Source: a phage
DNA: 50,984 bases
Strand: one strand, 5' to 3'
Sequence record: NC_100129.1
Shown here: positions 18,251-49,890 of the stretch, one piece after another
How positions within the stretch are numbered: the first letter of the stretch is position 1
How the letters are laid out: every line of letters begins with the position of its first letter
Position numbers and translations under genes: made by a program
Notes under the pieces: model-generated
Told to the model about the DNA's origin: nothing
The model's database searches: none
The model's input: the letters and a program-made list of their open reading frames with translations, nothing else

Positions 18251-18280
18251 AAAAATGCCCCGCATATGCGGGGCTTTTGT
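18250..18280. terminator. bidirectional terminator between fibre genes and ssb
   Basis: GCCCCGCATATGCGGGGC flanked by A-run and T-run. Confidence 0.75.
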
Positions 18281-18759: not shown

Positions 18760-18770
18760 GCGCCCCGTTT

Positions 18771-19424
18771 TTATTCAAAATCGGTGATGTTAGCCGATTG
18801 TACTTGCTCAGGTTTTGCGGTGTCAACGGAATCACTTGCCAGATTCTTTTTCGGTTGCGCTGGATTAAAACCACGAGCGCCGCAGATTTCGATTTCTGCT
18901 TTTCGTTTCTCGTAGTGTTCCTTAACGACCTGTTTACTTGCTGGATCGCTTGCGCTCCATGCTTTCTTGAATGTTTCCTGCAATTCAGGCACTGACTCGC
19001 ATTTATCAAGATCACGTTTCCAGTCGTTTGCAGACTTAACAGCGATTTGCGCATCATCGTCAGCCTGGCTTAAACCGAACGCTGCCGCCGCAGAATAGCG
19101 CCTACCGTATGTAAAAGCAGATCCTACACCTTGCGGATCATTCTTCACGATTGGGATGTCAAAGAAATATTTCACCCACTGACCTGATGTGTGCATTACT
19201 GTTGTTTCGACTCGCAGCGTGTTATTTTCGATGCGGCTGCCGTCCTGCATTAGCATTAGGTCGTTATCCATCAACGCTGGAGTTATTGCATCAAGTACAG
19301 CGTCAAGTGTGGCGTAACGGTTTTTCAGATGGCTGTTTTGTCGGTCTTTTTTAACCTTCACAAACATTGAACGCGCTTTGTGTAGCGCCGGAAGTACAAG
19401 ATCGAATTTCTCTGATAGCTGCAT
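18771..19424 (-). CDS. erf: Erf-family single-strand annealing protein
   Basis: N-terminal region with [17 protein letters not shown] typical of Erf; sits between exonuclease and SSB. Confidence 0.7.
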
Positions 19425-22242: not shown

Positions 22243-22266
22243 AAAGGGGGCTATGCCCCCTTTTTT
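22243..22266. terminator. bidirectional terminator between plus-strand cassette and J-like gene
   Basis: GGGGGCTATGCCCCC then TTTTTT; A-rich upstream. Confidence 0.8.
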
Positions 22267-25200
22267 ACCAGCTTCCGGTAATCCTTCCGACTTCAACCCT
22301 CAATACTCCGTTTGCATCTTTTACCTTCAATCCCTCATTGGTGAATTTAGTAGCTCCTTCTCCTGGCGTTGATCCGTAATTCTCAAAGATTCCGTTTTTA
22401 TCAAGCCTCCATCCTTGCTGGTTTTGAACAAAGTTGTTTGACTGAATAACATTACCAATCATCGCATTAGTGATTGATCCGTTCTTCACCAAAAGACTAT
22501 TAATGAAAACCTGATTATTCTCAACCACGAAAGGCAAAGTGAAAGTCCCTCCAGTAGAGCTAGTCATAATGGCGAACCTGTTAGCATCAAACAAAATTTG
22601 CGAGATAAGGCCGGATGAACCCTGCGAAAGCTGCATCACCATTCCTGCGCTGTACTTCTGCCCATTGTAAGTAAGACCCAATTTCATAGCGTACTTAGCG
22701 CCAACTGAATCAACGCTCGCCCAAGAATCCAACTTTTCAACCAATGCAGATTCAACGTCTCCAAATCGTGCTGTTAATGCCTGATCAGCTTGTACTCGTG
22801 CTTCCTCCTCGTTGGCGATAGCTTGTCTCACTTCGGAAATGCTGGCCTCAACGTCAACCTTGATTGCATCATTGAGATCATTAATCTCTTTGGTGAATTT
22901 TGCATCAAGCTGTTGTACCGCTTGCGCTCGCGCTTCTGACTCGTTAGTGATTGTCTGCCTTACATCGCTAATGCTTGCAGAAGTATCCTTGCGCACGCCG
23001 TCGATTTCTTTCGTGAATTTAGAATCAAGCTGCTGAATTTGAGTTGCTCGTGTCTCTGATTCAGTGGCGATTGCCTCCTGAACTGTCTTGATGCTTGATG
23101 TTATCTCGCCATCAATTGAAGCCCTCAATTCTTCGATTTGAGTTACTCGCGCCTCAGTCTCATTTGCGATCAACTGAACAGCATGACCATATTCAGCCTT
23201 TCGCTTTCCGTTCTGTACTCGCGTCCATTTCAAGTTAGCGTCAATCGCCAAAGCGTTCTGGATTATTGCCTGCGCCTGGTCTTTGATCTTGTTCGCGCTT
23301 TCGATGGCGTTCTCCTTGATTTCTTGCCCTGCTTCGCTATCAAAAATCTTATCAAGAATATCTCCTAAAACAGATTCAACATCATCTGATGCCATGCCAC
23401 GAACAAAATCAGTCCAGCTAGAAACGTTGCCGATTCTGTCAACGCTGCGGATTCTATACCAGACAACCTGACCCGCTGGTAGTGTACTGTGCCAGTATTC
23501 ATATTGCGGGTATGGGATCAGCGTTAACAGGCTTGAGTTTTCAACCGTTCCGTCTGGCGACTGGTGAAGCTCAATGTAGGCCGTGTCTCCGCTTCCTTCT
23601 GGCATGCCCCATTTAATACGAATGCCGAAAACTTCATTATCTGATGCGGTTAAGTTAACTGGCGCGCCTGGCTCGCCAACTTTACCAGTCAGGGAAGCTG
23701 TTGCAATCTTCGACCATGCTGATGTACTGCCGGAAGCTGAAACAGATCTGACCCTTACTTGATAGTTCCCTGAATAAATTCCTTCTACTTCCGTCTCTTT
23801 GTTCGCTGTGCGCGGCGTATTTAGCCAGTTGCCATCACCTTTTCGCCATTGCATTTCATACAGTGACGCATAAGGCACTTTATCCCACGACACAACCATC
23901 GTCTCAACGCTAACACCCTGGACAACACGGGAGTATGATGACACCTGAACATTTTCCGGTGCTTGCATGATGTCCGGCTGCACGATTGAGATCGGACGAT
24001 CATCAATGTTTACGCCATAATCAATTTCGTCGTATTTGTTAGGATCGTATTCAACCGCCGTAATCGAGTAGGTAAATTCTTCCTCAGTGTCACCCTTGCT
24101 GATTCCTGTTACAACGTACTGTTGCAACGCAAGGTCTGTTCGGTCGATTGCAAATACGGTGTCCGGTTTTACGTCGAATCCGAACCCTACGTTTAACTCA
24201 ATGGTTTTTCCGTCCGCGCTGACTTTTGAGATTGTGCGCTTAACTGGTTTTCCGTCCGGTCTGTTGATGATAATGAAATCACCTGGTCTAGCGTCAATCT
24301 TAAACGGAACGAATACCTGCAAGCCGGAAACTTCCATTACGCGCCCTGATAGGTTGAGCGTTAAGTTGCTGCTCAGGAAGTTATCAGAAATCGCGATAAC
24401 GTCACCGATAGATGGGATCATCCCTTCCAGCCCGGTGGCAAAGTTTACCGTTTGGCTGCGCAGGTTGGTTTTCAGTATCCAGCGTCCGCGTCGATTCGCT
24501 TCGCTTCGACGGGTACAACCAATCGCCGTGATACTTGTTGGATTGTAGCCAAAACGTAACGCCGCCTCAGTGTCAAATACGCCCTCAACGTCCTGTTGAT
24601 ACATGTTTTGCTCATCGTCAAACGTAACGTTGCATTGAGTGTACATGCTCTTTTCGCTGGCGCTCGTGTACTGAAAATCTCCATTAATTACGTTGTCGTT
24701 TGTAAAGATGTATGATGGCTCGCGCGGTTTATCCACCACTACAGACAAGCTCTCGCCATTCCAAAAAGTCATTCCTCGGAAGATTGAGCAAATGTCACGA
24801 ATAAGCTGATAAGCCTCAATCTGGCTTTGAATCACCATATCGCATAGGTAGCGCGGCTCTGTTCCTCCCTTGCCATCTGGAACCATCTGATCACAATACA
24901 CCCCAGCCTCGTATAGACTCCACTTGTCGATCTGTATTCCCAATTCTCGTTGATCAAGTCCATAACGCTGATTAGTAACCAAATCGTAAAGAACCCATGC
25001 CGGATTATTTGACCACGCTTTTTTAAATGTTCCGTCCCATGTTCCAGAATACCGACGAGATACAGGATCGTAATTGCTGGGAACCTGAATCAACTTCCAT
25101 TTCTTTTTAATTGAAATGTTAGGGATCTGGTTAGGGAACAGTTCACTGTCAAACTCGACGTAAACAAGCCCAGTCAGAGGGTAACGGAATTTTGCATCAA

Positions 25201-25843: not shown

Positions 25844-25889
25844 GTTTTTTTACCTTTTGTGCTATTTGCGTGTTTACATTATACGGACG

Positions 25890-25921
25890 AAAAAAAAGCC
25901 GCGCAACGCGCGACTCTTTTT
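25890..25921. terminator. terminator-like hairpin between I-like and J-like genes
   Basis: A-run, GC-rich imperfect hairpin (GCCGCGCAACGCGCG), T-run. Confidence 0.5.
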
Positions 25922-27993: not shown

Positions 27994-28021
27994 AATAAGT
28001 CCTCCTGTTTGCTGCATTGTA

Positions 28022-28052
28022 ACACCAATAAAAAGGCCGCACAAAAGCGGCC
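28022..28052 (-). terminator. terminator/attenuator between M-like and L-like genes
   Basis: GGCCGCACAAAAGCGGCC with T-run on minus strand. Confidence 0.6.
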
Positions 28053-28058
28053 TGTGTT

Positions 28059-28409
28059 TTATCCCATTGATGTAAATTGCTCCGTGAAAGTAGCTTTGAC
28101 TTCCTGAACGGTTGCAGAAATCGGAGTTGCGCCAACGCTGCCTCCCTGCACCCTGAATAACCCCAATTGACCGTCCGGCATTTCCCAAACAAACGGTTTT
28201 AATCTGTGATTATGCAGAAAGTTCAGCACCTCCCTGTAATCACGTCCGGCGTACACGATGGTAAACTCTCGCCGCACCGTGTTAAATCCGCCGGATGCTA
28301 CTTGCGTGTATCCGTTACCAAAAACGACCTCCCTGTCGTTGTTGGATGTGGTCATTGCTCCGCCGCCTCCTTGCGTTTGCGTGCACCATTTGAATCTTTC
28401 CAGCTTCAT
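28059..28409 (-). CDS. minor tail protein (lambda gpM-like)
   Basis: 116 aa immediately downstream of tape measure gene, size and position of gpM. Confidence 0.6.
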   Translation of the reverse strand: MKLERFKWCTQTQGGGGAMTTSNNDREVVFGNGYTQVASGGFNTVRREFTIVYAGRDYREVLNFLHNHRLKPFVWEMPDGQLGLFRVQGGSVGATPISATVQEVKATFTEQFTSMG

Positions 28410-28411
28410 GA

Positions 28412-31342
28412 TTAGCCTCGCTTGCTCATAACAAATTCGTAAACTTCGCCGCCCTGCGTACAGGAACGTTTAATCATATCGGTGAAAATCATCTTAACGC
28501 CAGTTTCTATACCTTTCGGATCGCTACCGTTGTTAATATCAACGCTAATACCGCCGATATTGAATTGCGCCGCGCCAGCATTGATGCCACCGCCGCTATA
28601 GCTGGAACCACCAACCACGCCGCCGTTAGCATAACCGCGCATCAACTTGTAAAGGTTGCCGACTCCGATCCGCTTCGTTGCCTCCTTCGTCATGACAAAT
28701 TCACCCTTGTGAACCACTCCAGCCGCTTCATATTTCCCGCCGTCGCCAGTGTAACCGCCATCAGAGAAGCCGCGAGGACGGAATGACGGAACGGGGAATG
28801 ACTGACCAGATCCGCCGCCAGTTTTAGGACTTCCGCTAACCCATCCCATCGCTGCCTGAATTGCGTAGGCAATACTCAACTGCGTAATGATGTTCATAAT
28901 CATTTTGATGATTGAAGATGCGAAGTCTTTAAAACTGCTTTTTCCTGTGCTCAATAGCTCCACAAACTGATCGCTGATTCCGTTTAATGCGTTGGTCATT
29001 ACGTTACCAAATTGACCGCCCAAATCCATAGCCGAATCAATCCAGTTTTTCGTAGAGCGTTCAATCCCTGCGATTGAGTTCATGCTCAACTCATCTTGCA
29101 TTGCGTAGACTTCGTTGATCTTATCAATCATCTCGGCGAGTCTTGCATCAGTAAGCTGACCGCCTTTTGCCAGCCAGTCAGTGACGATGCGTTGCCGTTC
29201 AAGCTCCCTTTGCGTCTCTCGGTCGCTCATGCCTTTTTGCTGTAGCTCAAGCGATTGAAGCGTTTCCTTTTGACGATGCAAGAATTTAATTGATGTATCC
29301 TGCAACTGGATCTGGTCGCCAAGTATAGCCCGCTGCTCTGCCAGCGAAAGGATCTTATCCTTGTTGGCAATAATGCTTTTTTCTTCGTCAGTAAGCTGGC
29401 GTTTCTGTGATGCTTCCTGCAAGACCTGGATTTTTGCTTGCTCAGTCCATAACGCCCGGCGCTGCTGGCTGATTGATGCAATGACAGTTTCGTGCTCCTT
29501 CAATACTCGCAATTGAGTCTCCAGTGCAACAATGTCTCGCTGATACTGATCCTCAATCCTGTCTCCAGCCGACACTTTGACCTTTTGAGAACGTGCTTTG
29601 TCACGCTTCGCCAGTTCTTCGGCCTCTTTCCTGATTGCTTCGCGCGTCTTCTCTGAATACTGCTGCTCTGTCGCCGCGCGTTCACGCATCATTTCAATGT
29701 AACCCATCTCGCCCTTTCTGACTCGCGCGTCGCGTTCTTCGATGGACTTCGCCAGTTCTTCGTTTTCCTTCTTGCTCTTGTCGATGATTTCCTGCTGCTG
29801 CTTGATAAATTCATCGCCAACACCGCTAAGTCCTGGGATGTTCTGCATCGCTTTAGTGGCAGAAATAACAAACTCACCGATCAGAATATCACCCTGATTA
29901 AGCAAGTAGCGAACCTGCTCAACCGTTGCCGCCACAACGTCAGTGATCAGGTTAAGCGCACCAATTGTGTGATCGCCTACCCATCCCCAGGCGTCAGAAG
30001 CCCACTTGCGCACGTCGTCCCACATCTTTTCTAACGGCGTTGCCGAATCGGCAAGGTTGGCAAGGCGTTGCTCCATTACATCGGCGAATAGCTCGGTCGC
30101 CCGTGTTACTGCCGCAGTTTTGCCGCTGGTTTTTTCAAGGTCGGCGATATAGGTTAGCTGTCCTTGTTTCAGGAAGTTAAATTCTTCGTTTAGCTTAGCC
30201 AGACCTTTGACCGGATCATCAGCAATCTTGTTAAAGTATTCCGTAATCTTTCCGCTTGATTCGCCCGTTACCGCTGACCATTGCGCAGTCGTTTTGGTGA
30301 TTGCCCTGATTTGGGTAATCGTAAACTTACCGGATCTTGCAAGCTCGGTTGCAATGTTGCGGATACTTCCAATCGTTGCATTCGTGCTACTGTTGATGTC
30401 CTGCGCCATCTTTTCGAATTGCGCCGCGTTAGTTCCGGCATAACCTCCAGTCAGGACTAACGCCTCATGCAAGTTTCGTTGCGAAGAGTAGGAATCATAA
30501 CCCGCTTTCACCAAAGCACCCAGGGAAACAACAAGCGCACCAACGCCAACATTTACCGGATTAAGGTACGACAACAACGCTTTGAACGTGTTAGAGATTC
30601 CACCGAATGAATCCTTAATCTGCCCGCCCTGCTGGATTGCAACCAACCATACAGGCATACCAGAAGCAAGCGAAGTGACAACATCAGTGATCTGCGCCGG
30701 AAGCATTCTCATAGCCTGCCGATATTGTCCCATTGAGATGCCTAATTTTTGGGCTTGCTTATCCTGCGCTTTCATCTGCGAGATAAATGGCGCTGCCTCA
30801 GCACTTACCCCTAGTTGTGCGGCGCGAATCTCCAGCAATTCCTCTCTGGTTTTCCCTGCTGCCTCAGCTTGCTGTTGCAATGCAGAGATGAATTTACGCG
30901 CCTCAGCCTCTGCACGGGCTTTCTGTTTCGCTTCCTCTGCCGCTGCTCGGCCTTCTTCGGTTAATGCTTTCTTTGTGGCGATCAGCTTATTCTGCTGCGT
31001 TTCCAAGATAGCGCCAAGCTCAAAGAAAGTATCATCAGGCACTACGCCTTTTTTCCAAAGGGAATCAAGCTGTGATGCCGCTTGTCGCAACTTATCCATT
31101 TTTGCCGCTGTCGGATCAATGGAGTCCTGAATTTTTCTAAACTCCGCTCGCTGCCTGCGCAATTCCTCGGCAAGCTGTTTAGCCTGCTGTCGTGCGATTG
31201 CCTCAGTATCAACGAATCCCTCGACGCTGCTCTTTGCGTCGTCGTTGGCCTTCTTGAACTGCTGCAATGATTTAACAGCATTCGTGACCTGCGACACGTC
31301 AACGCCAAGTGTTAAGCCTGCGTATTTATCAGCCATGTTCAT
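28412..31342 (-). CDS. tail tape measure protein
   Basis: 976 aa, long coiled-coil-rich, Gly-rich C-terminus, downstream of G/G-T chaperone. Confidence 0.85.
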   Translation of the reverse strand: MNMADKYAGLTLGVDVSQVTNAVKSLQQFKKANDDAKSSVEGFVDTEAIARQQAKQLAEELRRQRAEFRKIQDSIDPTAAKMDKLRQAASQLDSLWKKGVVPDDTFFELGAILETQQNKLIATKKALTEEGRAAAEEAKQKARAEAEARKFISALQQQAEAAGKTREELLEIRAAQLGVSAEAAPFISQMKAQDKQAQKLGISMGQYRQAMRMLPAQITDVVTSLASGMPVWLVAIQQGGQIKDSFGGISNTFKALLSYLNPVNVGVGALVVSLGALVKAGYDSYSSQRNLHEALVLTGGYAGTNAAQFEKMAQDINSSTNATIGSIRNIATELARSGKFTITQIRAITKTTAQWSAVTGESSGKITEYFNKIADDPVKGLAKLNEEFNFLKQGQLTYIADLEKTSGKTAAVTRATELFADVMEQRLANLADSATPLEKMWDDVRKWASDAWGWVGDHTIGALNLITDVVAATVEQVRYLLNQGDILIGEFVISATKAMQNIPGLSGVGDEFIKQQQEIIDKSKKENEELAKSIEERDARVRKGEMGYIEMMRERAATEQQYSEKTREAIRKEAEELAKRDKARSQKVKVSAGDRIEDQYQRDIVALETQLRVLKEHETVIASISQQRRALWTEQAKIQVLQEASQKRQLTDEEKSIIANKDKILSLAEQRAILGDQIQLQDTSIKFLHRQKETLQSLELQQKGMSDRETQRELERQRIVTDWLAKGGQLTDARLAEMIDKINEVYAMQDELSMNSIAGIERSTKNWIDSAMDLGGQFGNVMTNALNGISDQFVELLSTGKSSFKDFASSIIKMIMNIITQLSIAYAIQAAMGWVSGSPKTGGGSGQSFPVPSFRPRGFSDGGYTGDGGKYEAAGVVHKGEFVMTKEATKRIGVGNLYKLMRGYANGGVVGGSSYSGGGINAGAAQFNIGGISVDINNGSDPKGIETGVKMIFTDMIKRSCTQGGEVYEFVMSKRG

Positions 31343-31355
31343 TTACTCCAGATAT

Positions 31356-31378
31356 TAAAAAAGCGCCCGTAGGCGCTT
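31356..31378 (-). terminator. terminator/attenuator between G-T and tape measure genes
   Basis: AGCGCCCGTAGGCGCT followed by T-run on minus strand. Confidence 0.6.
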
Positions 31379-31384
31379 TGATTG

Positions 31385-32010
31385 CTATTTTTGGTGCATC
31401 ATTTCTAATGCTTTTTGTTCCATGATTCGCAAATCGTTTAAGGCCATTTCTTCATCTTCTATTTTATAGATTCTGAACAACATCGGCAAAACATTATAGT
31501 CAAATCCGTAAGCACCAGATCCGGCGCTTCTCCACTGCGTTTGCATTGCACAAAAAACATCCCATGACTGCATCATGCTTTCATCGAAAATAACCTCCGG
31601 CGGCTCCTCGCCTTCGTAGTCGGCGCGTGTTAATCCGACCGCTTCAAGCTCTGCGTCTGTCGGTGGCTTCTGGTAAAACAGGTAAACCGCGCGCCTTAAC
31701 CCTTTACGCGCTGACCAGCCAGAGCGCCTAAGTAGGATTGAACGAGCGCCAACGCTGACCCAGGGTAATAATCGACTAACAGTTTTGCGTTTTCGTGGTT
31801 AAATTCTTCTTCAAGATCCCAACCCGTCGCAATGTTCATGATAAAGTCAGAATCTTTGATCCCCTCTTTCCGGTAAAGCTCCTGTACTTCCGTCGCTTTC
31901 TTGTGCTTCACGGTGAAAATGATTTTCTGTTCGCTACCGTCAGGCATAACGAAGTTTACTGGTAGCTTGAAGTCCGGCAGTGGGCCAAGTGTTAATTTCA
32001 TCTTTGCCAT
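31385..32010 (-). CDS. tail assembly chaperone G-T fusion via -1 programmed frameshift
   Basis: -1 frame is open from heptamer A_AAG_GGT (31699-31705) through the 31385-31576 ORF; verified by manual translation. Confidence 0.6.
31696..32010 (-). CDS. tail assembly chaperone (gpG-like)
   Basis: 104 aa between major tail and tape measure; ends at slippery site AAAGGGT. Confidence 0.7.
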   Translation of the reverse strand: MAKMKLTLGPLPDFKLPVNFVMPDGSEQKIIFTVKHKKATEVQELYRKEGIKDSDFIMNIATGWDLEEEFNHENAKLLVDYYPGSALALVQSYLGALAGQRVKG

Positions 32011-32026
32011 TTTAATTTCTCCTTAA

Positions 32027-32046
32027 ATAGCATTTTTTGTTAAAAG
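32027..32046 (+). promoter_or_regulatory. dyad motif copy, variant (ATAGCATTTTTTGTTAAAAG)
   Basis: Between major tail gene terminator and chaperone G start; ~12 nt from G RBS on the minus strand. Confidence 0.5.
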
Positions 32047-32079
32047 TCTGAATGACTTGTTTGATAGATTCTACAGTAA

Positions 32080-32106
32080 CGAAAAAAGGGGCGCAACGCC
32101 CCCTTG
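32080..32106 (-). terminator. terminator after major tail protein gene
   Basis: AAGGGGCGCAACGCCCCTT followed by TTTTTT on minus strand. Confidence 0.75.
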
Positions 32107-32109
32107 TAA

Positions 32110-32772
32110 TTACTGAACATCGGAAGGAAGGAAGGTGAATCGACCTTTCAGAGAAACGGAAAGGGAAACTGTTTCCATTTCGTTGACGGTCGTCTGCGGG
32201 ATCTCGTTAAACGAAAGAACACCAGCCCAGCAACGCATTTCTTTCGCCTTTGGAACGAACATTCGCAACGCCGTAACCTCACCTCCTTCATCAGCTTTTC
32301 GAAGCAATGGATAAATTGGATTATCGAACTCATGCGCGAAAGTGTAGGTAAGAGATACCGCGCTTTTATATGTTGGTAGCTGCTGCTCCTGGTCGTCAGA
32401 TAAACACTGATAAGTGTAATATTGCTGTTCGCCGCCGTCCTGTGACAGATCCTGAACGCATGGAATTTCAACCCATGAATTGATTTTCGCAAACGATGCA
32501 GTACCACCGGAAGGGAAGATATTCTGATCTGTAGTATCAATACCCTCAAGCGTTACGCTAGTTTCTTCGCCATTCTGCTTGACGCGAAGAACGCGATCAA
32601 CCATCTTACCCCATGAGGAAGTAGTGATAATTACATAATCACCTTTCTTAAACTCAGTGCCGCCTGATGCAACTGTAAATACAGGATCTGCTGCGTTAGA
32701 AATAGCCGTTGCTTGCACATCAGTAGCTCGATTGCTTTCAATAAAAATTTGAGAACCGTTAGGAAGGTGCAT
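32110..32772 (-). CDS. major tail protein
   Basis: 220 aa directly upstream of G/G-T; strong terminator hairpin after the gene. Confidence 0.65.
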   Translation of the reverse strand: MHLPNGSQIFIESNRATDVQATAISNAADPVFTVASGGTEFKKGDYVIITTSSWGKMVDRVLRVKQNGEETSVTLEGIDTTDQNIFPSGGTASFAKINSWVEIPCVQDLSQDGGEQQYYTYQCLSDDQEQQLPTYKSAVSLTYTFAHEFDNPIYPLLRKADEGGEVTALRMFVPKAKEMRCWAGVLSFNEIPQTTVNEMETVSLSVSLKGRFTFLPSDVQ

Positions 32773-32778
32773 AGTAAA

Positions 32779-33177
32779 TTACTCCTTTGTTTCAATTCGA
32801 ACATAGAACCTGATCGGAATCAACCAACCAGTTTCACTTTTTTGTAGCTTATGGACTTTCGCCCCTTCGCTAATATAGCCAGTTTCTAAGATTTTACCAT
32901 CATAGAAAAAACTGGCAATCTCTTTAGCAAGTTTTCTACCTTTGTCAGATCCAGCGCCTGGAGGAATAATAACGCCAATCTGAACCATCCCAATATAAGA
33001 AACACATCTACGGTCAATTGAGAAAAACTCCTTGTCAACTTCTGTATAATCGAACCGCAACCACATAGAACCATCGGCAGGCGGTACAAACTCGACGTTT
33101 TCATAAGCGATTTTAAATCTGCTTTCAAATTCACCAGCAAGCGCCTTGCGCGCTGCCAACATCAATTCATAGTCCAT
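32779..33177 (-). CDS. tail terminator-like protein (by position)
   Basis: 132 aa immediately upstream of major tail gene. Confidence 0.45.
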   Translation of the reverse strand: MDYELMLAARKALAGEFESRFKIAYENVEFVPPADGSMWLRFDYTEVDKEFFSIDRRCVSYIGMVQIGVIIPPGAGSDKGRKLAKEIASFFYDGKILETGYISEGAKVHKLQKSETGWLIPIRFYVRIETKE

Positions 33178-33607
33178 TTTTTTTCCTCGACTCTTTGATT
33201 GCTTCTGCTATATACGTTCTTAACTTCGCTGCAACAATTCCCAGCACACCCGCTGGCGCTTGCTTTGAATGCCCGTACTCTAGGGCGTTAGCATAAATCA
33301 ACATATTGGAAAAATAAATCGACCTTACCGCGCCGCCGCCACGCATGATGGCAAAGATTGCCCGCTTGCCTTCCGCAATAGTCTTATCTCCGTGCTTATC
33401 ATATTGATTCAGTGCGTACAGTGGCGGGGAATTTGCTGTCACCTGCCAGTTTCCCCGATAGCGCCCCGTATCAACTGGCGAGCGTCTTACCAGATCTGTG
33501 TGTACCTTAACGGCGAACAATTCTATGCAATCCTCAAGACCATCATTTACGGCGTTAATCCAGCGGTCAATGTCGCCGTGAAATTCCTTGATCTTGTAGT
33601 TAGCCAT
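33167..33607 (-). CDS. tail completion protein (by position)
   Basis: ATG overlaps upstream stop (ATGGCTAA); position in head-tail joining cluster. Confidence 0.45.
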   Translation of the reverse strand: MANYKIKEFHGDIDRWINAVNDGLEDCIELFAVKVHTDLVRRSPVDTGRYRGNWQVTANSPPLYALNQYDKHGDKTIAEGKRAIFAIMRGGGAVRSIYFSNMLIYANALEYGHSKQAPAGVLGIVAAKLRTYIAEAIKESRKKNGL

Positions 33608-33980
33608 GTACCGCAACCCTCCTAAGTATTGGCCTGTAGGCGACCGTGATGTTTGTCTGTCTGACTGGTCGCGCTTCAACTACTATATAACGCTCACCAT
33701 CAACATCAATGTGATACCCGTTCTTAATTTCTACGGAATTAGTGAAAACTCCCAGCTTGTCGGTTACGCGGATTGTTTCGCCGTCCACCTCACGCGTTCG
33801 AGGCGACCGGATCAGACCTTTAATCATTACGCTTACTTCCGGCTTCTCTACCTCCTCGCCTCCCACAATATCTACGCTACCCTGTTGCGTGATACACTTA
33901 AACTCACCAGCGCCATCGCTGAAAAAGTTAATTCCAGCCGTAGCCAATCGTGCGATCTCATTGTAGTTCATCGGCAACAC
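33600..33980 (-). CDS. head-tail joining protein (by position)
   Basis: 126 aa; overlapping co-directional neighbours. Confidence 0.45.
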
Positions 33981-34450
33981 CTCCGGCGCAATCCAGTTAC
34001 CAGGCCAAATCCGCCACCATGCTTACGGTTTAGCGCCTCGTACATTTTTCCCCACGGTGTCTGGCGGATCATCTTTCCGCTTGCGTCATTAGTCACGCGG
34101 TCAAACGTCTGACTAAATTCTCCAGTCAGGGAAAACGACGAAATACGGCGTGAGTAACTCTCCACGCTCTCACCTTCCTGTTTCATAGCTCCGTCCAACG
34201 TCATAAGGTGCAAGGTGTAAAGCGCAACCGCTTTCGGGTATGAGTTTTTAAACCTCTTTTTGCAAACAAACTCTTTAGAAAGCTCAATCCATGCCACAAT
34301 TAAATCGGGATCAACTTGTTGCATTGGCGGCGCTAACTTCACGATTTGCTGCATGATTTCAGCGTCTGTGTAAAATTCATCTACCATTTTGTTTTCTCCA
34401 GATGTGACAAAGGGCGCATAAGCGCCCCAATTATTAATATTCGCCGCCAT
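33968..34450 (-). CDS. head-tail connector/adaptor protein (by position)
   Basis: 160 aa in head-tail joining cluster. Confidence 0.45.
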
Positions 34451-34700
34451 CCTCTAGCTCTTTGCGGCTCTTGCCCTCGGTAGGATCTTTTTTGCGCTTC
34501 TTCTCCGCTTTCTCCTTGATTTGCTCGTTAATTTCTGAATTGTCTTTAACTTCCACATCTCCGCGAGCGATCAGGTATTCAATTGCGGAATCATTAATGC
34601 GTTCGGATTCAATTTCAATTTCATCACCAGGATGATAACGCTTACCGTTCATAATAATCATGCAAACGCCAGTTACTTTAAGTTTTAAAGTTTTGCTCAT
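34434..34700 (-). CDS. hypothetical structural protein (88 aa)
   Basis: ATG with GGAG RBS just after terminator hairpin following capsid gene. Confidence 0.4.
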
Positions 34701-34711
34701 TTTGTGTGCTC

Positions 34712-34746
34712 CGTAAATAAAAAAAGGGGAACCATTAAGGCTCCCC
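34712..34746 (-). terminator. terminator after major capsid gene
   Basis: GGGGAACC..GGCTCCCC hairpin followed by T-run on minus strand. Confidence 0.65.
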
Positions 34747-34757
34747 ATGTTATCTAA

Positions 34758-35732
34758 TTACGCATCCTTTTTCAAGCCAGTAATTAGAACCATCGTAAAC
34801 GGACGGTAAATTGTAAGGCCAGTGCACTTTGAAGTACAAGGAACTTTAAAATGCAGATCTTTCGGCTGTGCAGGCAGCATATTGAATGCCTCCGGGATCT
34901 CAATGCTCATGTTCATTGGATCTTTTTCGTAAACCAGGCAGCCTTTAGTGCCTTTGCCGTCAATATCCTCAAGCTCTGCAATGGAGTCGATGGTGATACC
35001 GTCGTTTTGCTTCTGGAAGTATTCCAAATAGCTTTCAGTGGTATTTTCCATTCGAACCGTAAGGACTTTACGCATAGACGGCGGAATCAGGATGTTAGTC
35101 GCGCGATGCTGACCTTTGGTTACTTCCTCGATCGTTTCGATTGCAGTCTCCAGTTCATCGCTTGCAACTTCTGGAAACTTGGTGTTTCCGTCGTTACTCA
35201 GCCATCCTTTTGACGTGATTTTAGTCAGGTTTGGATGATCGAAAACGGAAACGATCTTATGAGGCTTGGAACCTTTGAAAACCAGGAAGTTAATAAGCTG
35301 ATCATGTGCATTCTGCGCTGCGTTAGCCTTGCGAGTAGAAAGGCTTTTACCAGTTCGCTGACCTGCTTTGATTTCGTCAATTGAGATCAGGAAAGCGTTA
35401 CCCATGCGGAACACTTTGCCAAACTCAGAAGTCATAAGAGCGTCAACGGTCGGCAGGTCGTCGGTGTAGTCTGCAATAATTTTCGCGTAACCAACTTTAT
35501 CAAAAGTCTGATACTCGAAAGTTTTGTCGGTGTCGCTCAGTTCATTGGTGACAGGGAAGACGCGAAGCGCAGAACCCGCTGGATACTCTTTTTCGTAAGC
35601 AGTGGATCGGATTTTGTGCAACTCCTGAGCAGTCCAAATACCCATGTCGGAAGCATCACCCTTAACACCTTGCAATTGCAGGTGATTAGACACAATGGAA
35701 GCGTCTAGCTCATCATATTTTTTCTTTGTCAT
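34758..35732 (-). CDS. major capsid protein
   Basis: 324 aa; AGGAG RBS; flanked by terminator hairpins; position after scaffold/decoration genes. Confidence 0.7.
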   Translation of the reverse strand: MTKKKYDELDASIVSNHLQLQGVKGDASDMGIWTAQELHKIRSTAYEKEYPAGSALRVFPVTNELSDTDKTFEYQTFDKVGYAKIIADYTDDLPTVDALMTSEFGKVFRMGNAFLISIDEIKAGQRTGKSLSTRKANAAQNAHDQLINFLVFKGSKPHKIVSVFDHPNLTKITSKGWLSNDGNTKFPEVASDELETAIETIEEVTKGQHRATNILIPPSMRKVLTVRMENTTESYLEYFQKQNDGITIDSIAELEDIDGKGTKGCLVYEKDPMNMSIEIPEAFNMLPAQPKDLHFKVPCTSKCTGLTIYRPFTMVLITGLKKDA

Positions 35733-35744
35733 GATTTTTTCTCC

Positions 35745-35775
35745 TATAAAAAAGGCTGTTAACAAGTAACAGCCT
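35745..35775 (-). terminator. terminator/attenuator upstream of major capsid gene
   Basis: AGGCTGTTA..TAACAGCCT hairpin followed by TTTTTT on minus strand. Confidence 0.65.
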
Positions 35776-35779
35776 CATG

Positions 35780-35799
35780 ATAGCACTTTTTGTTAAAGG
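35780..35799 (+). promoter_or_regulatory. dyad motif copy
   Basis: Between decoration-like gene and terminator/major capsid gene. Confidence 0.5.
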
Positions 35800-35823
35800 T
35801 GCAAATCTATTTTGTGGTATTCA

Positions 35824-36606
35824 TTAAGTGCCTACTGTTTTACTGAACACTATGTCAAACTGATCAGCAACTCCAGAACCGTCGTTTGCAGTCCAGTTAA
35901 CATTAACATGTCCGCCTACTCCAGTAGGAACTACAAGGCCAGTGCGACTAACGCTTGCAACCTTTGGATCTTGCTCGTTTGTAATCGTCCACTTCCCCGT
36001 TTTGTCGTCAGCCCATGTTGGAACAACGGTTACTTTTAGCTGAACGTTGTCAATTGTTTCTGTTCCCTCTACGTAACCATTTTCGGCCTCAATGATCGCA
36101 CCAGTAAGAAGGTATTTTCTATGATGAAGCGGCGTTATTCTGACTCCGACTATGTTCATTGTTTCATCAAACTTGTAAAAGTCACCAGTAAAAATCCAGC
36201 CATCGACGATTTCATCCCCATCACTACTTGCTACAAAACCATCATTGTTAACATAAACAAGATCGCCATGTTCAGGCGCAGACTCAATCGTTTGAGTTAA
36301 GCACCATACAACCCCTCTTGTTAAAATGTTGATAGAATCTCCTTCCTTATAGTCAGAGTATCCGTCTTCCTCGTTAACCGTTGTCGTGATATTGCTCCTT
36401 ATAGCAACACCAGCAACCACAGCATCACCCTCTTTGTGATCAACAAATATGTTGTAACCTTCAACTCTTTCTTTAAAGAAAACAACCTTTCCAGCGATGA
36501 TGGATTCAGAACCGCAAACTCCAGTGCCATCAATATTGTAGCGAGTAGAATCAACTAGGCATCCAGGACAGGAAAGCCCCATAACAGATGAGTAATCTTT
36601 AGCCAT
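35824..36606 (-). CDS. capsid decoration-like protein, long paralog
   Basis: N-terminus MAK...YNIDGTGV... paralogous to 36768-37169 gene; AGGAG RBS; terminator upstream. Confidence 0.5.
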   Translation of the reverse strand: MAKDYSSVMGLSCPGCLVDSTRYNIDGTGVCGSESIIAGKVVFFKERVEGYNIFVDHKEGDAVVAGVAIRSNITTTVNEEDGYSDYKEGDSINILTRGVVWCLTQTIESAPEHGDLVYVNNDGFVASSDGDEIVDGWIFTGDFYKFDETMNIVGVRITPLHHRKYLLTGAIIEAENGYVEGTETIDNVQLKVTVVPTWADDKTGKWTITNEQDPKVASVSRTGLVVPTGVGGHVNVNWTANDGSGVADQFDIVFSKTVGT

Positions 36607-36621
36607 CTCATTTCTCCTTAC

Positions 36622-36652
36622 ATAATAAAAAAAGGCGCTCAAGCGAGCGCCT
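36622..36652 (-). terminator. terminator between decoration-like paralogs
   Basis: GGCGCTC..GAGCGCC hairpin followed by TTTTTTT on minus strand. Confidence 0.7.
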
Positions 36653-36767
36653 TAATTTTAGCTTGGGAAGACTTGAACTTCAAACAAAGTCAACAAATCG
36701 CTACCAGTACCAAAAGTGGTTTTATCTCCAGTGTAGATCCAGTTCGTATTGATTGCACCAGCACTTT

Positions 36768-37169
36768 TCACACCTTGCCAGTGTTTTCATCAATTTTCAC
36801 AGGCTCGCGATATTGTGGAGTTTTTGATTTATCAGAATCATCGCCAACCATCCAGACTCTGCCCTCGGTCATAACGTTGATTCCGCCGCCAGCCTCATAA
36901 ACCATTCGCCCATTATCAGCCGTGGTTTGAAAGTGCGAGCGGATGCCAACGCCATAAGGAACATCACCACCACCAGAAATAGCGTCGATCAGCTTATTAC
37001 CCATTGAGTCAACGCCTTTTAGCTTAACAGCCACGCCAACCAGGATTGGGATGCCGTCTTCTTTATCAAGAACGCAAGCGCCGTCAATGTTATAAGCGGA
37101 AGTGTCAGACACCTGACCAGGAAGTGCGCGCGCCATTACGTCAAAGTAACTTGCTCCAATTTTAGCCAT
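36768..37169 (-). CDS. capsid decoration-like protein, short paralog (possibly truncated by frame break)
   Basis: MAK...YNIDGACV...GVGIRS motifs shared with neighbour; a 42-codon -1-frame extension downstream resembles the paralog C-terminus. Confidence 0.5.
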   Translation of the reverse strand: MAKIGASYFDVMARALPGQVSDTSAYNIDGACVLDKEDGIPILVGVAVKLKGVDSMGNKLIDAISGGGDVPYGVGIRSHFQTTADNGRMVYEAGGGINVMTEGRVWMVGDDSDKSKTPQYREPVKIDENTGKV

Positions 37170-37185
37170 TTTATTTCTCCTTTGA

Positions 37186-38298
37186 TTATTTCAGTTTAGC
37201 AAAGCGAGCGTTTGGATTAAGAGGCTTGTCTTCGTCTTCCTTATTGGAACAGAAAGAGTCACCCTTAACTGCTTGTCGCTGAGCTGCCATTTTATCAGAA
37301 GTCTTCGCAATATCGAAAGCGGTTTCGATGTAAGCGTCAGCCTTGTCTGATACGTCCGCACCAGTAACCTCTTTGATGTAAGCAACCTTGATTGCTTTCG
37401 CATCCAGACCGTCGCACTTGATGCCAATCTCTGTAGCATCAGCAACAAGCGCGGCGTGCGCTTCTGCGTCAGCTTTGGCCTGCTTCACAGCTTCTTCAAT
37501 CTTAGCCGGAATGCCATCAACCTTAGCCTGCAATGCGTCGCGCTCCGCCTCCAGTGATGCGGCCTTGTCTTTCTCGGCTTTAGCGTCAGCTTTCAGGTTG
37601 TCAATGTGCGCTGCAACTTCTTTCGGTACATCAAATTCTACAGCGCCATCAAGCTTAATTTTAACGTTCATTTTTTCATCCTCTTTGTTTGAAATATCCT
37701 CGTCACTATACGGAAAATCTTGCTCACTATCAAGGTTTAGTTTAGCGACTCCGGCACGACCACGGAAAACTAGCGCGATATGATTAACTCGGATGTTCGT
37801 CTGAATTGCATCGAACTTAACCCAATCAGGAGAATCAGGTTTCCAATCTTCTTTCATATCTTCTTCAAAGAAATATTCACCTGTCTGATTATTGCCCCAG
37901 CCTGGCTTGTCAATATCAACGGACGTGTAACCTACAGATATTTCAGCCGTGGCTCGTTTCTTCGCGCTATCGATCGCACGTTTAGAGTAAATGCTTAACG
38001 GCACTTCTACCCCAATCCCGTTTGGAACGCCAGCGCCAGCACAGGAACCAACAACCACTTTTTCCGCGTTCTCAGGCGTGACGGTAACATGCCCGATAGT
38101 GATCGGCTTGCCTGCGAACGTCTCCAGGGAGTCGGCCTTGAATACCTCTGAAGCTGGGCGAAATTCACGTCGAACGCCGAAAGGAGTTTGGTACTCCTGC
38201 AAACCGATACGCGCCACAATTGGGCGATCCACTAAAAACCCGTTATCGTCAAAGTGCGCTTTGACGCGCACACTATCAAACCTTTGTTTTGCCTTCAT
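37186..38298 (-). CDS. putative prohead protease/scaffolding protein
   Basis: Globular N-terminal half plus Ala/Lys/Glu-rich coiled-coil C-terminal half; between minor head protein and capsid genes. Confidence 0.45.
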   Translation of the reverse strand: MKAKQRFDSVRVKAHFDDNGFLVDRPIVARIGLQEYQTPFGVRREFRPASEVFKADSLETFAGKPITIGHVTVTPENAEKVVVGSCAGAGVPNGIGVEVPLSIYSKRAIDSAKKRATAEISVGYTSVDIDKPGWGNNQTGEYFFEEDMKEDWKPDSPDWVKFDAIQTNIRVNHIALVFRGRAGVAKLNLDSEQDFPYSDEDISNKEDEKMNVKIKLDGAVEFDVPKEVAAHIDNLKADAKAEKDKAASLEAERDALQAKVDGIPAKIEEAVKQAKADAEAHAALVADATEIGIKCDGLDAKAIKVAYIKEVTGADVSDKADAYIETAFDIAKTSDKMAAQRQAVKGDSFCSNKEDEDKPLNPNARFAKLK

Positions 38299-38312
38299 TA
38301 ATTAGCCTCCTG

Positions 38313-39059
38313 TTAATCCCATTTTGGAATAGCCCAACAACGACAACCAAATTCCTCGCCAGGGAAAACATGGTTTTCACTCAGCATAATCAGTTTACCT
38401 TCCCATTGGACGTGTTTCAATCGCTCGCGCTCGTCTAACATCCCGTGCCAGTAATAGGCCGACACTCCGGCATCATAAAGGCGCTGGCGCATCAGGCGAC
38501 TATTCCACGCGCCCACCATATTTTCCGCTCTGGTCTTTCCCCATGAGCTATAGACGGCGAATCGCTTCTCAGCCAGTTCATTAACCTGTTGGTCACTGCT
38601 GCCGCGAAAATTGGCGTTACGGATATTTGTTGACCAGTCAGACACGATGTTGGTAAACAGTTTTCTCAGTGATGATTCAGTAAGCCCAAGCCATTGACCG
38701 TATAGCGTCCTATACCATTCTTCTTGTGCGTTCGCCCCGACCGCGACCAGAACAATGACAGCTACGTTATCTTTGCCGCCAGTAGCGCGCGCGATGTTAA
38801 TAAACTGCTGCGCATTGAATTTGTAGATCGCCAGTGCGATAGCCGGAAGGCTTGAAACGATGGCGCTGATTAAGTCGGTAGACAGATTGTTGATCTCATC
38901 CTCTGCCGCGTTAATCTCTGCGTCGCTTGCGTCAAATTTCATTGCCTTTGTCCGGCGGCGCATCAGCACAACCAGATCTCGAATCGCCTCCTGAATTGAG
39001 CGGCTTAATTGCCGCTCGCTGGCTTCAGGAAAGCGCCATTGTTTAACGGCGCGTTTCAT
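38313..39059 (-). CDS. minor head morphogenesis protein (Mu F / SPP1 gp7-like)
   Basis: C-terminal HVFPGEEFGCRCW motif typical of this family; immediately downstream of portal. Confidence 0.65.
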   Translation of the reverse strand: MKRAVKQWRFPEASERQLSRSIQEAIRDLVVLMRRRTKAMKFDASDAEINAAEDEINNLSTDLISAIVSSLPAIALAIYKFNAQQFINIARATGGKDNVAVIVLVAVGANAQEEWYRTLYGQWLGLTESSLRKLFTNIVSDWSTNIRNANFRGSSDQQVNELAEKRFAVYSSWGKTRAENMVGAWNSRLMRQRLYDAGVSAYYWHGMLDERERLKHVQWEGKLIMLSENHVFPGEEFGCRCWAIPKWD

Positions 39060-39061
39060 GA

Positions 39062-40345
39062 TTATTCTCCCTCAGTGCCTGGCTCCGGCTCCACTGGCTC
39101 CGGCTCCGGCAATTTGATGTTGTTGGTGTCTTTCAGTTTAACTTTCGGCGCGATAGCTCGCAATGTGTCGCGTGCTTCGTCTGCGTCAATAAATTGGCCT
39201 TCGATAGCTGCTTTCAGAGAAGTAATATTTTTGTTAAGGATTTCAGCCTCGTCCTTATCGCTCGGCACGCTCAACGGCGCAAAGTCGATGCTCCACTCGT
39301 TTTCAGTGATCAGGAACGGCAGGAGAAATTCCAGGATTGGCTTGTAGTCCTCAATGCGTTTTCGTTCGATCAGTTTGTAGAACGTTTCAAGCGCGGTGTT
39401 TTGACTGGCGCTCACGCCGCCGACGTTTTTATTTTTCAGAATGATTTCATGGATACCTGACAGGGAAACAATACGATCAAGTTTCTTCTCCAGGAAGGCA
39501 TCCACGCCTGAAATGTCAGAATTAAGAACGTCGTATTCTTCATCTTCCGCGTCAATCCCGATTGCACGGCCTACACCGCTTTCATCGTCAACCTGCGCTA
39601 GTCGCAAGCGTGCCGCCTGTTCACCTTCGTTGTCGTCGCACAGGTCAGCCAGTCCGCGTGCTTTCCATACCGCCTGTTGTTTGCGGCGTAGTAGCTGTGT
39701 CGCCAGTTCTTCACAATAGTTGTAATCAACGATGGCCTCAATCAGCCGCTTATTGAGAATTGACTCGCCCCATCCATCGTTACGTCGTCTCTGCGCGTTA
39801 GGAATACGTTCACCGTCGATAACACAAATTCGTGTGTAGTGTACTTGATATTCCGGCATATCATCGCCAGGTTGGATGGTGTAAAGCACTGGCTCACCGT
39901 AGCGGACGTTTCGTGGATTTGTTTCACGTTTTTCTACTCGGATCTGGAAGCGGTCATATACGCGGATGTCTTCAAGCATTGCGCCTTCGCTGACGGCTGA
40001 CTTTAACGCTCTCCCGTCGTTGACTATTGCCACAATTGCAGCGCCACCGAACAATCGCGACCAGCACAGGGCATCAATGATTTTTGCATTAAGGCGCTTC
40101 TCATCCCAAATAGAGCGGAAAGCGGCCTCATCTTCTATGCCATCAATATTAAACCCAGGCGTCACCATCTCTTCCGGCACAACGTCGATGATTCTTTTTG
40201 CCATGCCATCAACGGCGTAAAAGTCGGCAAGCGTTCGCTGTTCCAGTCCTTGCATGTAAAATGGCTGCTCGACTCGTTGGTTTTGGCTTCGCTTGAAAAT
40301 ATCGTTGTACCCGTCGTACTTTATGGTTTTATTTTTCTCACTCAT
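39062..40345 (-). CDS. portal protein
   Basis: 427 aa between terminase large subunit and head morphogenesis gene; acidic C-terminus. Confidence 0.75.
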   Translation of the reverse strand: MSEKNKTIKYDGYNDIFKRSQNQRVEQPFYMQGLEQRTLADFYAVDGMAKRIIDVVPEEMVTPGFNIDGIEDEAAFRSIWDEKRLNAKIIDALCWSRLFGGAAIVAIVNDGRALKSAVSEGAMLEDIRVYDRFQIRVEKRETNPRNVRYGEPVLYTIQPGDDMPEYQVHYTRICVIDGERIPNAQRRRNDGWGESILNKRLIEAIVDYNYCEELATQLLRRKQQAVWKARGLADLCDDNEGEQAARLRLAQVDDESGVGRAIGIDAEDEEYDVLNSDISGVDAFLEKKLDRIVSLSGIHEIILKNKNVGGVSASQNTALETFYKLIERKRIEDYKPILEFLLPFLITENEWSIDFAPLSVPSDKDEAEILNKNITSLKAAIEGQFIDADEARDTLRAIAPKVKLKDTNNIKLPEPEPVEPEPGTEGE

Positions 40346-40357
40346 GATTATTCTCCT

Positions 40358-40386
40358 AATAAAAAAGGCTGGAAAAATCCAGCCTT
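40358..40386 (-). terminator. terminator/attenuator between terminase and portal genes
   Basis: AGGCTGGAAAAATCCAGCCT hairpin plus T-run on minus strand. Confidence 0.65.
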
Positions 40387-40399
40387 GATTATACTTTCT

Positions 40400-40417
40400 T
40401 TTAGCAATTCGTGCTAT
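40400..40417 (-). promoter_or_regulatory. dyad motif copy, palindromic variant (ATAGCACGAATTGCTAAA)
   Basis: Overlaps stop TAG of terminase large subunit; followed on minus strand by TATAAT, terminator hairpin and portal RBS. Confidence 0.55.
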
Positions 40418-42515: not shown

Positions 42516-42565
42516 TAATCATTTCTCCTTTTTGATAACAGGGCATCATTATAGCAAATGACAGG

Positions 42566-42603
42566 CAATAAAAAACCCGCCATAAAGGCGGGCTGTTTTT
42601 CGT
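42566..42603. terminator. bidirectional terminator upstream of terminase small subunit gene
   Basis: CCCGCCATAAAGGCGGG flanked by A-run and T-run. Confidence 0.7.
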
Positions 42604-44723: not shown

Positions 44724-44743
44724 GTTTTAACAAAAAGTGCTAT
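44724..44743 (-). promoter_or_regulatory. dyad motif copy (reverse orientation)
   Basis: Exact copy; followed on minus strand by hairpin CCAGCTTCGGCTGG and T-run. Confidence 0.6.
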
Positions 44744-46013: not shown

Positions 46014-46070
46014 TGTTGATTCCTATGTTTACTGAACGGGGTAAATTATAGCGGAGCATTGCGCCCCGCG

Positions 46071-49828: not shown

Positions 49829-49870
49829 TCTCGTTTCGATGAGGCTATTATGCCAGGTTTTGCACCTGGC

Positions 49871-49890
49871 GTTTTAACAAAAAGTGCTAT
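49871..49890 (-). promoter_or_regulatory. dyad motif copy (reverse orientation)
   Basis: Overlaps stop TAG of lipoprotein gene; hairpin, CATAAT, CCTCATCGAAACGAG leader, RBS follow. Confidence 0.6.

Follow-up and report, generated by a model that had tools for sequence, protein, structure and literature searches.

The late structural region of the phage genome analyzed here (sequence record NC_100129.1; 50,984 nucleotides, hereinafter the window) contains 11 hairpins on its coding strand that, by their anatomy, placement and conservation, are well supported as canonical intrinsic (Rho-independent) terminators. These hairpins are likely to act on the host Escherichia coli RNA polymerase and to split the 20-kb structural region into short units, most of which would be restarted by their own sigma-70-type promoter that is interlocked with the terminator. 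A preliminary description of the window had listed six of these hairpins and proposed that graded attenuation or re-initiation, rather than a single read-through late transcript, sets the stoichiometry of the structural proteins.

The window belongs to a T1-like siphophage of the family Drexlerviridae. Positions 28000-40400 show 98.6-98.9% identity to Escherichia phages BabyEgg, BEBK14, MatMar and WaterSpirit, and 76-84% identity to other Tempevirinae such as atuna. The structural genes occupy the minus strand, from about 42845 down to 22265. A Pfam scan of 15 window proteins yielded matches to the terminase large subunit (terL), portal, major capsid protein (MCP; PF09950), tail tube protein, tail assembly chaperone, tape measure protein (TMP) and minor tail proteins M and L, and confirmed every name that the preliminary description had used for the genes flanking the hairpins. 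The two genes upstream of the MCP gene encode paralogous "cement" (decoration) proteins, gpX and gpY, one of which contains an Ig-like domain detected by Pfam. Nine junctions were aligned in up to eleven genomes, namely the window, BabyEgg, atuna, G29-2, Henu7, Klebsiella phage K50 (KlebK50), Salmonella phage Sephi301i, Cronobacter phage CS01, T1, Klebsiella phage Call and JK06; junctions with a hairpin and a T-run are shared with ten relatives from at least seven genera.

All six hairpins reported previously were recovered where they had been placed, on the coding (minus) strand and each with a T-run right after it; the free-energy calculation run for each of them gives a minimum free energy (MFE) of -13.2 to -16.4 kcal/mol and z-scores of -2.8 to -5.1 (MFE values from 37-42-nt stretches including a few flanking bases; z-scores against dinucleotide shuffles). 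That list was incomplete, with five further sites of the same kind (A, C, E2, I and the site after gene J, below) bringing the total to 11. The stems of the 11 sites are G+C-rich and 7-10 bp long, the loops measure 3-6 nt, and the MFE ranges from -13.2 to -17.4 kcal/mol; a U-tract (T4-T8) immediately follows 10 of the 11 stems, the exception being the site after gp88, where only TTTGT is found. All sites are co-oriented with the minus-strand genes, being located in intergenic gaps or directly after J, and divide 23 genes into small late groups.

In the head gene part of the region, terminator A is located between the small gene preS and terS (42574-42594, minus strand, as are all the sites in this paragraph; AGCCCGCC-TTTAT-GGCGGGTT; T-run 42567-42573; -15.6 kcal/mol), terminator B between terL and the portal gene (40365-40386; AAGGCTGGA-TTTT-TCCAGCCTT, then TTTTATT; T-run 40358-40364; -16.4 kcal/mol, z -5.1), and terminator C between the cement paralogue gpX and the cement protein gpY (36632-36653; T-run 36622-36631; -17.4 kcal/mol, z -5.3). 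Hairpin D precedes the MCP gene (gpY/MCP junction, 35752-35776; GAGGCTGTTA-CTTGT-TAACAGCCTT, then TTTTAT; T-run 35746-35751; -13.2 kcal/mol), terminator E follows it (MCP/gp88 junction, 34726-34746; GGGGAGCC-TTAAT-GGTTCCCC, then TTTTTTT; T-run 34715-34725; -16.3 kcal/mol), and hairpin E2 is found after gp88 (34412-34428; GGGGCGC-TTAT-GCGCCCT with the weak T-run TTTGT; -14.4 kcal/mol). Among the tail genes, terminator F lies between the genes for the major tail protein (MTP) and the chaperone G (32085-32105; T-run 32082-32087; -14.0 kcal/mol), terminator G between T and the tape measure gene (31360-31379; UACG tetraloop; -13.7 kcal/mol, z -5.0; the T-run, 31352-31359, runs straight into the ribosome-binding site), terminator H between M and L (28034-28053; T-run 28027-28033; -14.7 kcal/mol), and terminator I between I and J (25898-25914; GTCGCGC-GTT-GCGCGGC; T-run 25890-25897; -16.5 kcal/mol). 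The last site (22243-22263; -15.6 kcal/mol) closes the structural block, downstream of the tail fibre gene J. The genes for the cement protein, MCP and major tail protein, the three highest-copy proteins, each end at a hairpin, and those for gpY and MCP are each bracketed by two.

Under a strict definition of a site (6 or more contiguous pairs, 4 or more G-C pairs, a loop of 3-8 nt, dG of -9 or lower and 4 or more T among the 5 nt that follow), 8 sites are found on the coding strand of 22000-43000 compared to 0.27 +/- 0.53 expected (maximum 3; 300 dinucleotide shuffles), and all of them fall in the intergenic sequence that accounts for 3.4% of the module. A hairpin is found in each of the 10 late-module gaps that are 42 nt or longer and in none of those of 16 nt or less; the occupied gaps between genes measure 42-99 nt. 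The strict search replaced a permissive terminator finder, which was dropped after yielding hundreds of large-loop artefacts. An Rfam search of 22000-43000 returned nothing above threshold, and the sub-threshold matches to Trp and Leu leaders merely reflect the terminator shape. Genome-wide, all strong sites are either co-oriented with the local genes or located at convergent junctions. Perfect palindromic hairpins with T-runs on both strands are found at two convergent gene junctions, 7068-7090 and 18257-18274, and probably are bidirectional terminators.

Per-sequence hairpin detection identified a G+C-rich hairpin followed by T5-8 at almost every aligned junction in every genome, and the T-run columns are the most conserved ones in every junction alignment. 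Orthologous hairpins are present in 8 of 8 aligned genomes for terminator A and in 10 of 10 for terminator G; a hairpin with a T-run is found in 10 of 11 genomes for terminator C, with unrelated stems, and in 11 of 11 for terminator E, with largely different stems, and hairpin E2 is identical in sequence in atuna. The post-MCP stem, for example, is GGGGAGCC/GGTTCCCC in the window, GGGAGCCTC/GAGGTTCCC in Henu7, AAGCCTCTC/GAGAGGCTT in CS01, GGGGCTAAC/GTTAGTCCC in T1, AATGGCCC/GGGCCATT in Call and TACCACCC/GGGTGGTA in JK06; though divergent, all these stems lead into T5-8. The pre-MCP hairpin D keeps its register and shows compensatory changes at 5 of 10 pairs (RNAalifold, 8 genomes). The RNAalifold consensus for the post-MCP and gpX/gpY hairpins was discarded in favor of the per-sequence detection because MAFFT cannot align non-homologous stems. 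Given that the stems vary while the pairing and the U-tract persist, it is the structure and the U-tract rather than any particular sequence that are under selection, and such turnover of stems with the pairing retained is a signature of intrinsic terminators as opposed to protein-binding palindromes. The terminator reading of the preliminary description is thus well supported, with hairpin and U-tract kept at orthologous junctions while the stem sequences change. A 160-amino-acid open reading frame that starts at 34450 (minus strand; BabyEgg annotation) overlaps gp88 and includes a conserved hairpin; the ATG at 34387 (minus strand), which is preceded by GGAG and is the start used in atuna and T1, probably is the true start of the gene after gp88.

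Junctions A, B, D, F, H and I contain conserved sigma-70-type elements whose position with respect to the hairpin is fixed. The "adjacent dyad motifs" of the preliminary description turn out to be a misreading: the neighbors of the hairpins are promoter hexamers and a non-palindromic 19-nt repeat (ATAGCACnnnTTGnTAAAA). The promoter-like elements come in two layouts. In layout 1, which is found at the MTP/G, M/L and I/J junctions, the 3' end of the loop together with the 3' arm of the stem reads TTG(C/T)GC, a candidate -35 element, and TA(T/C/G/A)AAT, often preceded by TG, is located exactly 17 nt beyond it, with the T-run inside the spacer. When 28 layout-1 sequences (three junctions, up to 10 genomes each) are anchored on the -10 element, TTG is present at the 17-nt position in about 22, and the consensus reads gC.TTG.Gc.g.tTTTTT.tt.....TA.AAT. 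Hairpins that lack a downstream -10 also lack TTG-ended loops, which argues that the TTG serves the promoter.

At terminator F, the -35 element TTGCGC (32091-32096, minus strand) is contained in the loop and 3' arm and is separated by 17 nt from TAGAAT (32068-32073, minus strand), the -10 element of a candidate promoter that would restart transcription into G, T and the tape measure gene; a hexamer of the TGTAnAAT type after the T-run is kept in relatives. At terminator H, TTGTGC in the loop and 3' arm (28039-28044, minus strand) lies 17 nt before the extended -10 element TGTTACAAT (28016-28024, minus strand), forming a candidate restart promoter for L, K and I, and the pattern TTG(T/C)GC-17-TA(C/T/G)AAT is found in 9 of 11 genomes. 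At terminator I (minus strand), TTGCGC (25901-25906) is followed by a 17-nt spacer and TATAAT (25878-25883), with TTG(C/T)G(C/G)-17-TA(T/C)AAT present in 9 of 11 aligned junction sequences. A candidate restart promoter for terS-terL is represented by the extended -10 element TGCTATAAT (42548-42556, minus strand), located 10 nt past the T-run region of terminator A and 16 nt past the uninterrupted T-run; the hexamer TA(T/A)AAT is found in 8 of 8 genomes (TAAAAT in T1) and carries the TGn extension in 6.

In layout 2, which is observed at the terL/portal and gpY/MCP junctions, the -10 element ends 0-1 nt upstream of the stem. If transcription starts about 7 nt past the -10 element, as is usual, initiation would fall in the 5' arm. 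At the terL/portal junction, the -10-like TATAAT (40388-40393, minus strand) ends 1 nt before hairpin B, with the start predicted at about 40381, within the 5' arm, and every one of the 9 hairpin-bearing genomes, T1 and CS01 among them, has TATAAT, TACAAT or TAAAAT 0-1 nt upstream of the stem. The putative MCP promoter (35777-35805, minus strand) consists of TTTGCA as the -35 element (35800-35805), a 17-nt spacer and the extended -10 element TGCTATCAT (35777-35785), with hairpin D starting immediately after; the promoter scan also picked up this candidate, and the pattern TTGnnn-16/17-TAT(C/T/G/A)(A/C)T, with the -10 element in its extended form given as TGcTAT(C/T)AT, is present in 11 of 11 genomes.

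The tail-terminator gene carries a probable embedded promoter for the major tail gene (32891-32918, minus strand; TTGCCA, 13 nt, extended -10 element TGGTAAAAT, with a 16-nt spacer to TAAAAT), about 120 nt upstream of the major tail protein start; in the promoter scan, this candidate matches at 10 of 12 positions and includes the TG. Within it, GATGGTAnAAT is invariant in 9 genomes, with synonymous-site conservation of GAT GGT AAA; of 53 third-codon positions, only four are invariant, and three of these fall in this stretch.

Altogether, the terS, portal, MCP, MTP, G, L and J modules each have conserved elements, either -35/-10 or extended -10, with start sites predicted at about 42541, 40381, 35770, 32884, 32061, 28009 and 25871 (minus strand). 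For the gpY and gp88 modules, the sole promoter candidates are weak and overlap coding sequence; for the TMP module, there is none. No promoter was found downstream of the hairpin at the gpX/gpY, MCP/gp88 and gp88/next gene junctions, and no promoter-like element was found near the hairpin at the T/tape measure junction. At the gpX/gpY and MCP/gp88 junctions, a suggestive -10-like hexamer abuts the hairpin on the upstream side; at terminator E, these only suggestive elements are TAACAT (34747-34752) and TTGAAA (34770-34775; both minus strand).

Under the mechanism that we propose, the structural region would be transcribed as short units rather than as one long late transcript, and most units would be restarted by their own sigma-70-type promoter. 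In layout 1, the end of the hairpin loop and the 3' arm would double as the -35 element, with the T-run in the 17-nt spacer and the TAnAAT -10 element after it; in layout 2, the -10 element would abut the stem such that initiation occurs inside the 5' arm. RNA arriving from upstream would contain the complete hairpin and U-tract and would be terminated, whereas RNA started at the local promoter would contain no hairpin (layout 1) or would lack its 5' arm (layout 2) and would escape. The genes for the cement protein, MCP and major tail protein would thereby become promoter-gene-terminator cassettes, and low-copy genes would receive a lower output. At the T/tape measure junction, the downstream, mostly lower-copy genes would need read-through, that is, attenuation. 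The 3' hairpins probably stabilize the upstream mRNAs as well. Restart is favored also by the consideration that ten good terminators in series, in the absence of restart or antitermination, would let hardly any transcript reach the distal tail genes. The annotations of T1, BabyEgg and the other relatives include no antiterminator, the sole regulator noticed being a Cro/YdaS-like helix-turn-helix protein. Of the two modes put forward in the preliminary description, re-initiation in place of a single read-through transcript draws support from the comparison of sequences, namely the fixed-register promoter elements, the embedded MTP promoter and the hairpin-ended high-copy genes, and is favored overall, whereas graded attenuation appears to be the likelier mode only at the T/TMP junction. 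That termination and initiation actually occur at these sites, with what efficiency and with what effect on stoichiometry, we infer from sequence evidence only. With more reservation, at somewhat less than even confidence, we suggest that the interlocked module of about 45 nt is the standard late-region punctuation of T1-like phages, which might stop the incoming polymerase, launch a hairpin-free transcript and insulate the high-copy genes.

Several points weigh against the proposed mechanism. Only 3 of 6 positions of the -35 elements inside the hairpins agree with the consensus, and the -10-like hexamers at the gpX/gpY and MCP/gp88 junctions overlap stop codons or coding sequence and are conserved less consistently. 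The shared ancestry of the relatives means that the genomes in each conservation count are not independent of one another. The mechanism does not account for the "late" timing of what would be plain sigma-70 promoters, and a search of the available literature library for RNA-seq on T1, Drexlerviridae or Webervirus found no transcript data. Furthermore, the stringent predictors used by the authors of the TLS re-annotation gave only three intergenic sigma-70 promoters genome-wide (PMC11447400).

An alternative to which we assign a small but appreciable probability is that the hairpins act mainly post-transcriptionally, with one or a few long late transcripts formed either because termination is weak or because the polymerase is phage-modified to resist it, and the stem-loops serving as barriers to 3'-exonucleases that lengthen the half-lives of segments such as those of MCP and MTP. 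The hairpins are indeed placed exactly 3' of the highest-copy genes, terminators are known to stabilize upstream mRNA (PMC11696848), and at the T/TMP, gpX/gpY, MCP/gp88 and gp88 junctions, where no promoter lies downstream of the hairpin, read-through is needed. However, such a barrier requires no U-tract, yet no feature at any junction is conserved better than the T5-8 that directly follows the stem. The promoter hexamers at fixed spacing are left unexplained as well, and the lack of an annotated antiterminator in the relatives also speaks against a resistant polymerase. RNase III sites of the T7 R-site type were considered separately and rejected, given that the stems here are perfect, 7-10 bp long and always accompanied by a U-tract, in contrast to the imperfect duplexes of about 20 bp or more in such sites, which usually contain an internal loop and do not require a U-tract.

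The combination of hairpin, U-run and Shine-Dalgarno sequence could also be mainly translational, uncoupling neighboring genes and offering a U-rich, S1-binding, unstructured leader to the next gene, in line with the GGAG and start codon that are found 3-10 nt past the U-run at the terL/portal, gpX/gpY, MCP/gp88 and T/TMP junctions. We consider this improbable because, at the MTP/G, M/L, I/J and preS/terS junctions, the distance from the U-run to the ribosome-binding site is 30-70 nt and includes the conserved -10 element, the site after J is not followed by a co-oriented gene, and the anatomy is that of standard terminators, which are predicted by ARNold and TransTerm in relatives.

Action at the DNA level, with the palindromes serving, for example, as operators bound by a protein or as signals for recombination or packaging, is very improbable: the stems differ between junctions and genera with the pairing kept, as fits base-pairing, and the T-run is always on the mRNA strand. 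This possibility was raised by the pre-MCP palindrome CTGTTA...TAACAG, which overlaps the promoter and loosely resembles the LexA-type CTGT...ACAG box, and by the presence nearby of the non-palindromic 19-nt repeat, which is presumably protein-bound. A LexA box at the pre-MCP palindrome was rejected as the CTGT/ACAG spacing is 9 rather than 8 and CTGT is not conserved (atuna has CCGT/ACGG). Finally, an origin of the hairpins as chance inverted repeats in A+T-rich intergenic DNA, which might be suggested by the many weak sites in a permissive consensus terminator scan (36 versus 19.8 expected), is excluded by the strict count, the confinement of every site to the small intergenic fraction and the retention of orthologous positions in 10 relatives.

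The family 19-nt repeat (ATAGCACTTTTTGTTAAAA) is present in the window in about 21-25 copies (25 at up to 3 mismatches compared to 2.3 expected), for example, at 282-300 and 3925-3943 on the plus strand and at 10149-10167, 44725-44743 and 49872-49890 on the minus strand. The copies in the late module are located at 40399-40417 and 25847-25865 (minus strand) and, in inverted orientation, at 35780-35798 and 32027-32045 (plus strand). The first of these (ATAGCACGAATTGCTAAAA), upstream of the portal junction in the sense orientation, is kept in five Tempevirinae-like relatives (atuna, G29-2, Henu7, KlebK50 and BabyEgg) as well as in JK06, and the inverted copy at 35780-35798 forms the spacer of the conserved MCP promoter, which is the reverse complement of the repeat. 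About 15 early/middle copies have a -10-like hexamer ((C/T)ATAAT or TAnnnT) at a fixed distance of 18-19 nt downstream. The TTGTTA within the repeat was rejected as a -35 element because, at 22 nt from the -10-like hexamer, it is too far for a normal one. The 19 nt that separate the repeat from the -10-like hexamer form a G+C-rich hairpin in 8 of 21 copies (-5 to -12 kcal/mol), and the hairpin sequence varies from copy to copy (e.g., 3944-3962 and 6788-6806 on the plus strand; 10130-10148, 46051-46069 and 49853-49871 on the minus strand). These early-region hairpins inside putative promoters seem to echo the late terminator-promoter composites. The repeat may be the binding site of an early/late regulator and, overlapping or flanking several late promoters, may represent the missing temporal switch.

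Two further observations concern a gene of the window and public sequence records. In gpX (36660-37169, minus strand), the window has a 2-bp insertion relative to BabyEgg at about 36771 (GGTGTGAAAAG against GGTGAAAAG), which results in a frameshift of the first cement-protein paralogue (133 amino acids versus 169), with the conserved C-terminus encoded in a different frame; the insertion may be genuine or may be a sequencing error. About 20 unannotated records labeled "Campylobacter phage" (e.g., MG065643, MG065681 and MG065673) show roughly 76% identity over most of the structural module and look like mislabeled T1-like phages or contaminants of Campylobacter phage preparations.

The hairpins in the late genes are an already known feature of T1-like phages, being annotated in T1 and G29-2 and listed for TLS, so that the hairpins as first reported add nothing to these annotations. 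The T1 record (RefSeq NC_005833) contains a "rho-independent transcriptional termination site" at the orthologous junctions 8322-8344 (A), 10545-10573 (B), 14235-14267 (C), 16107-16137 (E), 16445-16470 (E2), 18770-18796 (F), 19508-19527 (G), 22793-22816 (H), 24972-24994 (I) and 28568-28594 (after J); the pre-MCP hairpin is present in the T1 sequence but unannotated, and no promoters are annotated. The G29-2 record includes ARNold terminators at the same places, among them terL/portal and after gp88. The 2024 re-annotation of TLS lists terminators T28-T50 and 21-nt direct repeats DR1-18, the role of which its authors left open (PMC11447400, Supplementary Table S1). The TLS terminators correspond one-to-one to those in the window (T28 to A, T30 to B, T34 to C, T35 to D, T36A to E, T36B to E2, T42 to F, T44 to G, T46 to H, T49 to I and T50 to the site after J), with near-identical loops and stems at several sites, and the DR repeats are the same as the window repeat ATAGCACnnnTTGnTAAAA, with the inverted copy DR7 located just before the MCP hairpin.

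Neither is the idea of re-initiation new: it is the same as the "transcripton" proposal for T1, under which late modules are flanked by terminators and contain RpoD promoters (Roberts et al., 2004, as quoted in PMC11447400), and which the TLS authors did not endorse. In contrast to the TLS report, the cross-genus comparison presented here indicates that promoter hexamers are conserved at 6-7 late junctions, and a -35 element inside the hairpin or a -10 element abutting the stem is not stated in the transcripton sources that we consulted. What appears to be new, if modestly so, is the conserved interlocking of terminator and promoter, namely the putative hairpin-borne -35 at three junctions, the hairpin-abutting -10 at two and the probable promoter embedded upstream of the major tail gene. 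The comparative analysis thus provides sequence-level support for the transcripton proposal, which the TLS re-annotation could not confirm, along with exact, testable start and stop coordinates. If the proposed mechanism is correct, it would explain the ratios of structural proteins in a phage that has no polymerase or sigma factor of its own, and the terminator-promoter composites of about 45 nt would be useful as insulating parts in synthetic biology.

Among the known systems, the late operon of phage lambda is expressed as a single PR' transcript under Q antitermination and does not rely on internal restart. The window phage has tail genes homologous to those of lambda, both in their order and in their families (G/T, tape measure, M, L, K, I, J); in contrast to lambda, it carries 11 terminator-like sites and lacks an annotated Q-like protein. 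In T7, the T-phi terminator after the capsid gene is an internal, partly read-through terminator in a lytic phage. In Pseudomonas phages, terminators of this kind have been mapped by ONT-cappable-seq (PMC10914365). The window resembles T7 and the Pseudomonas phages in that intrinsic terminators located after high-copy structural genes or just past promoters mix short and long transcripts in those phages, where, unlike the sites described here, which are known from sequence, the terminators were measured experimentally. Whereas the terminators in the 5' untranslated regions of those phages are located downstream of the start site, in the T1-like modules the start is predicted to lie inside the hairpin or after it.

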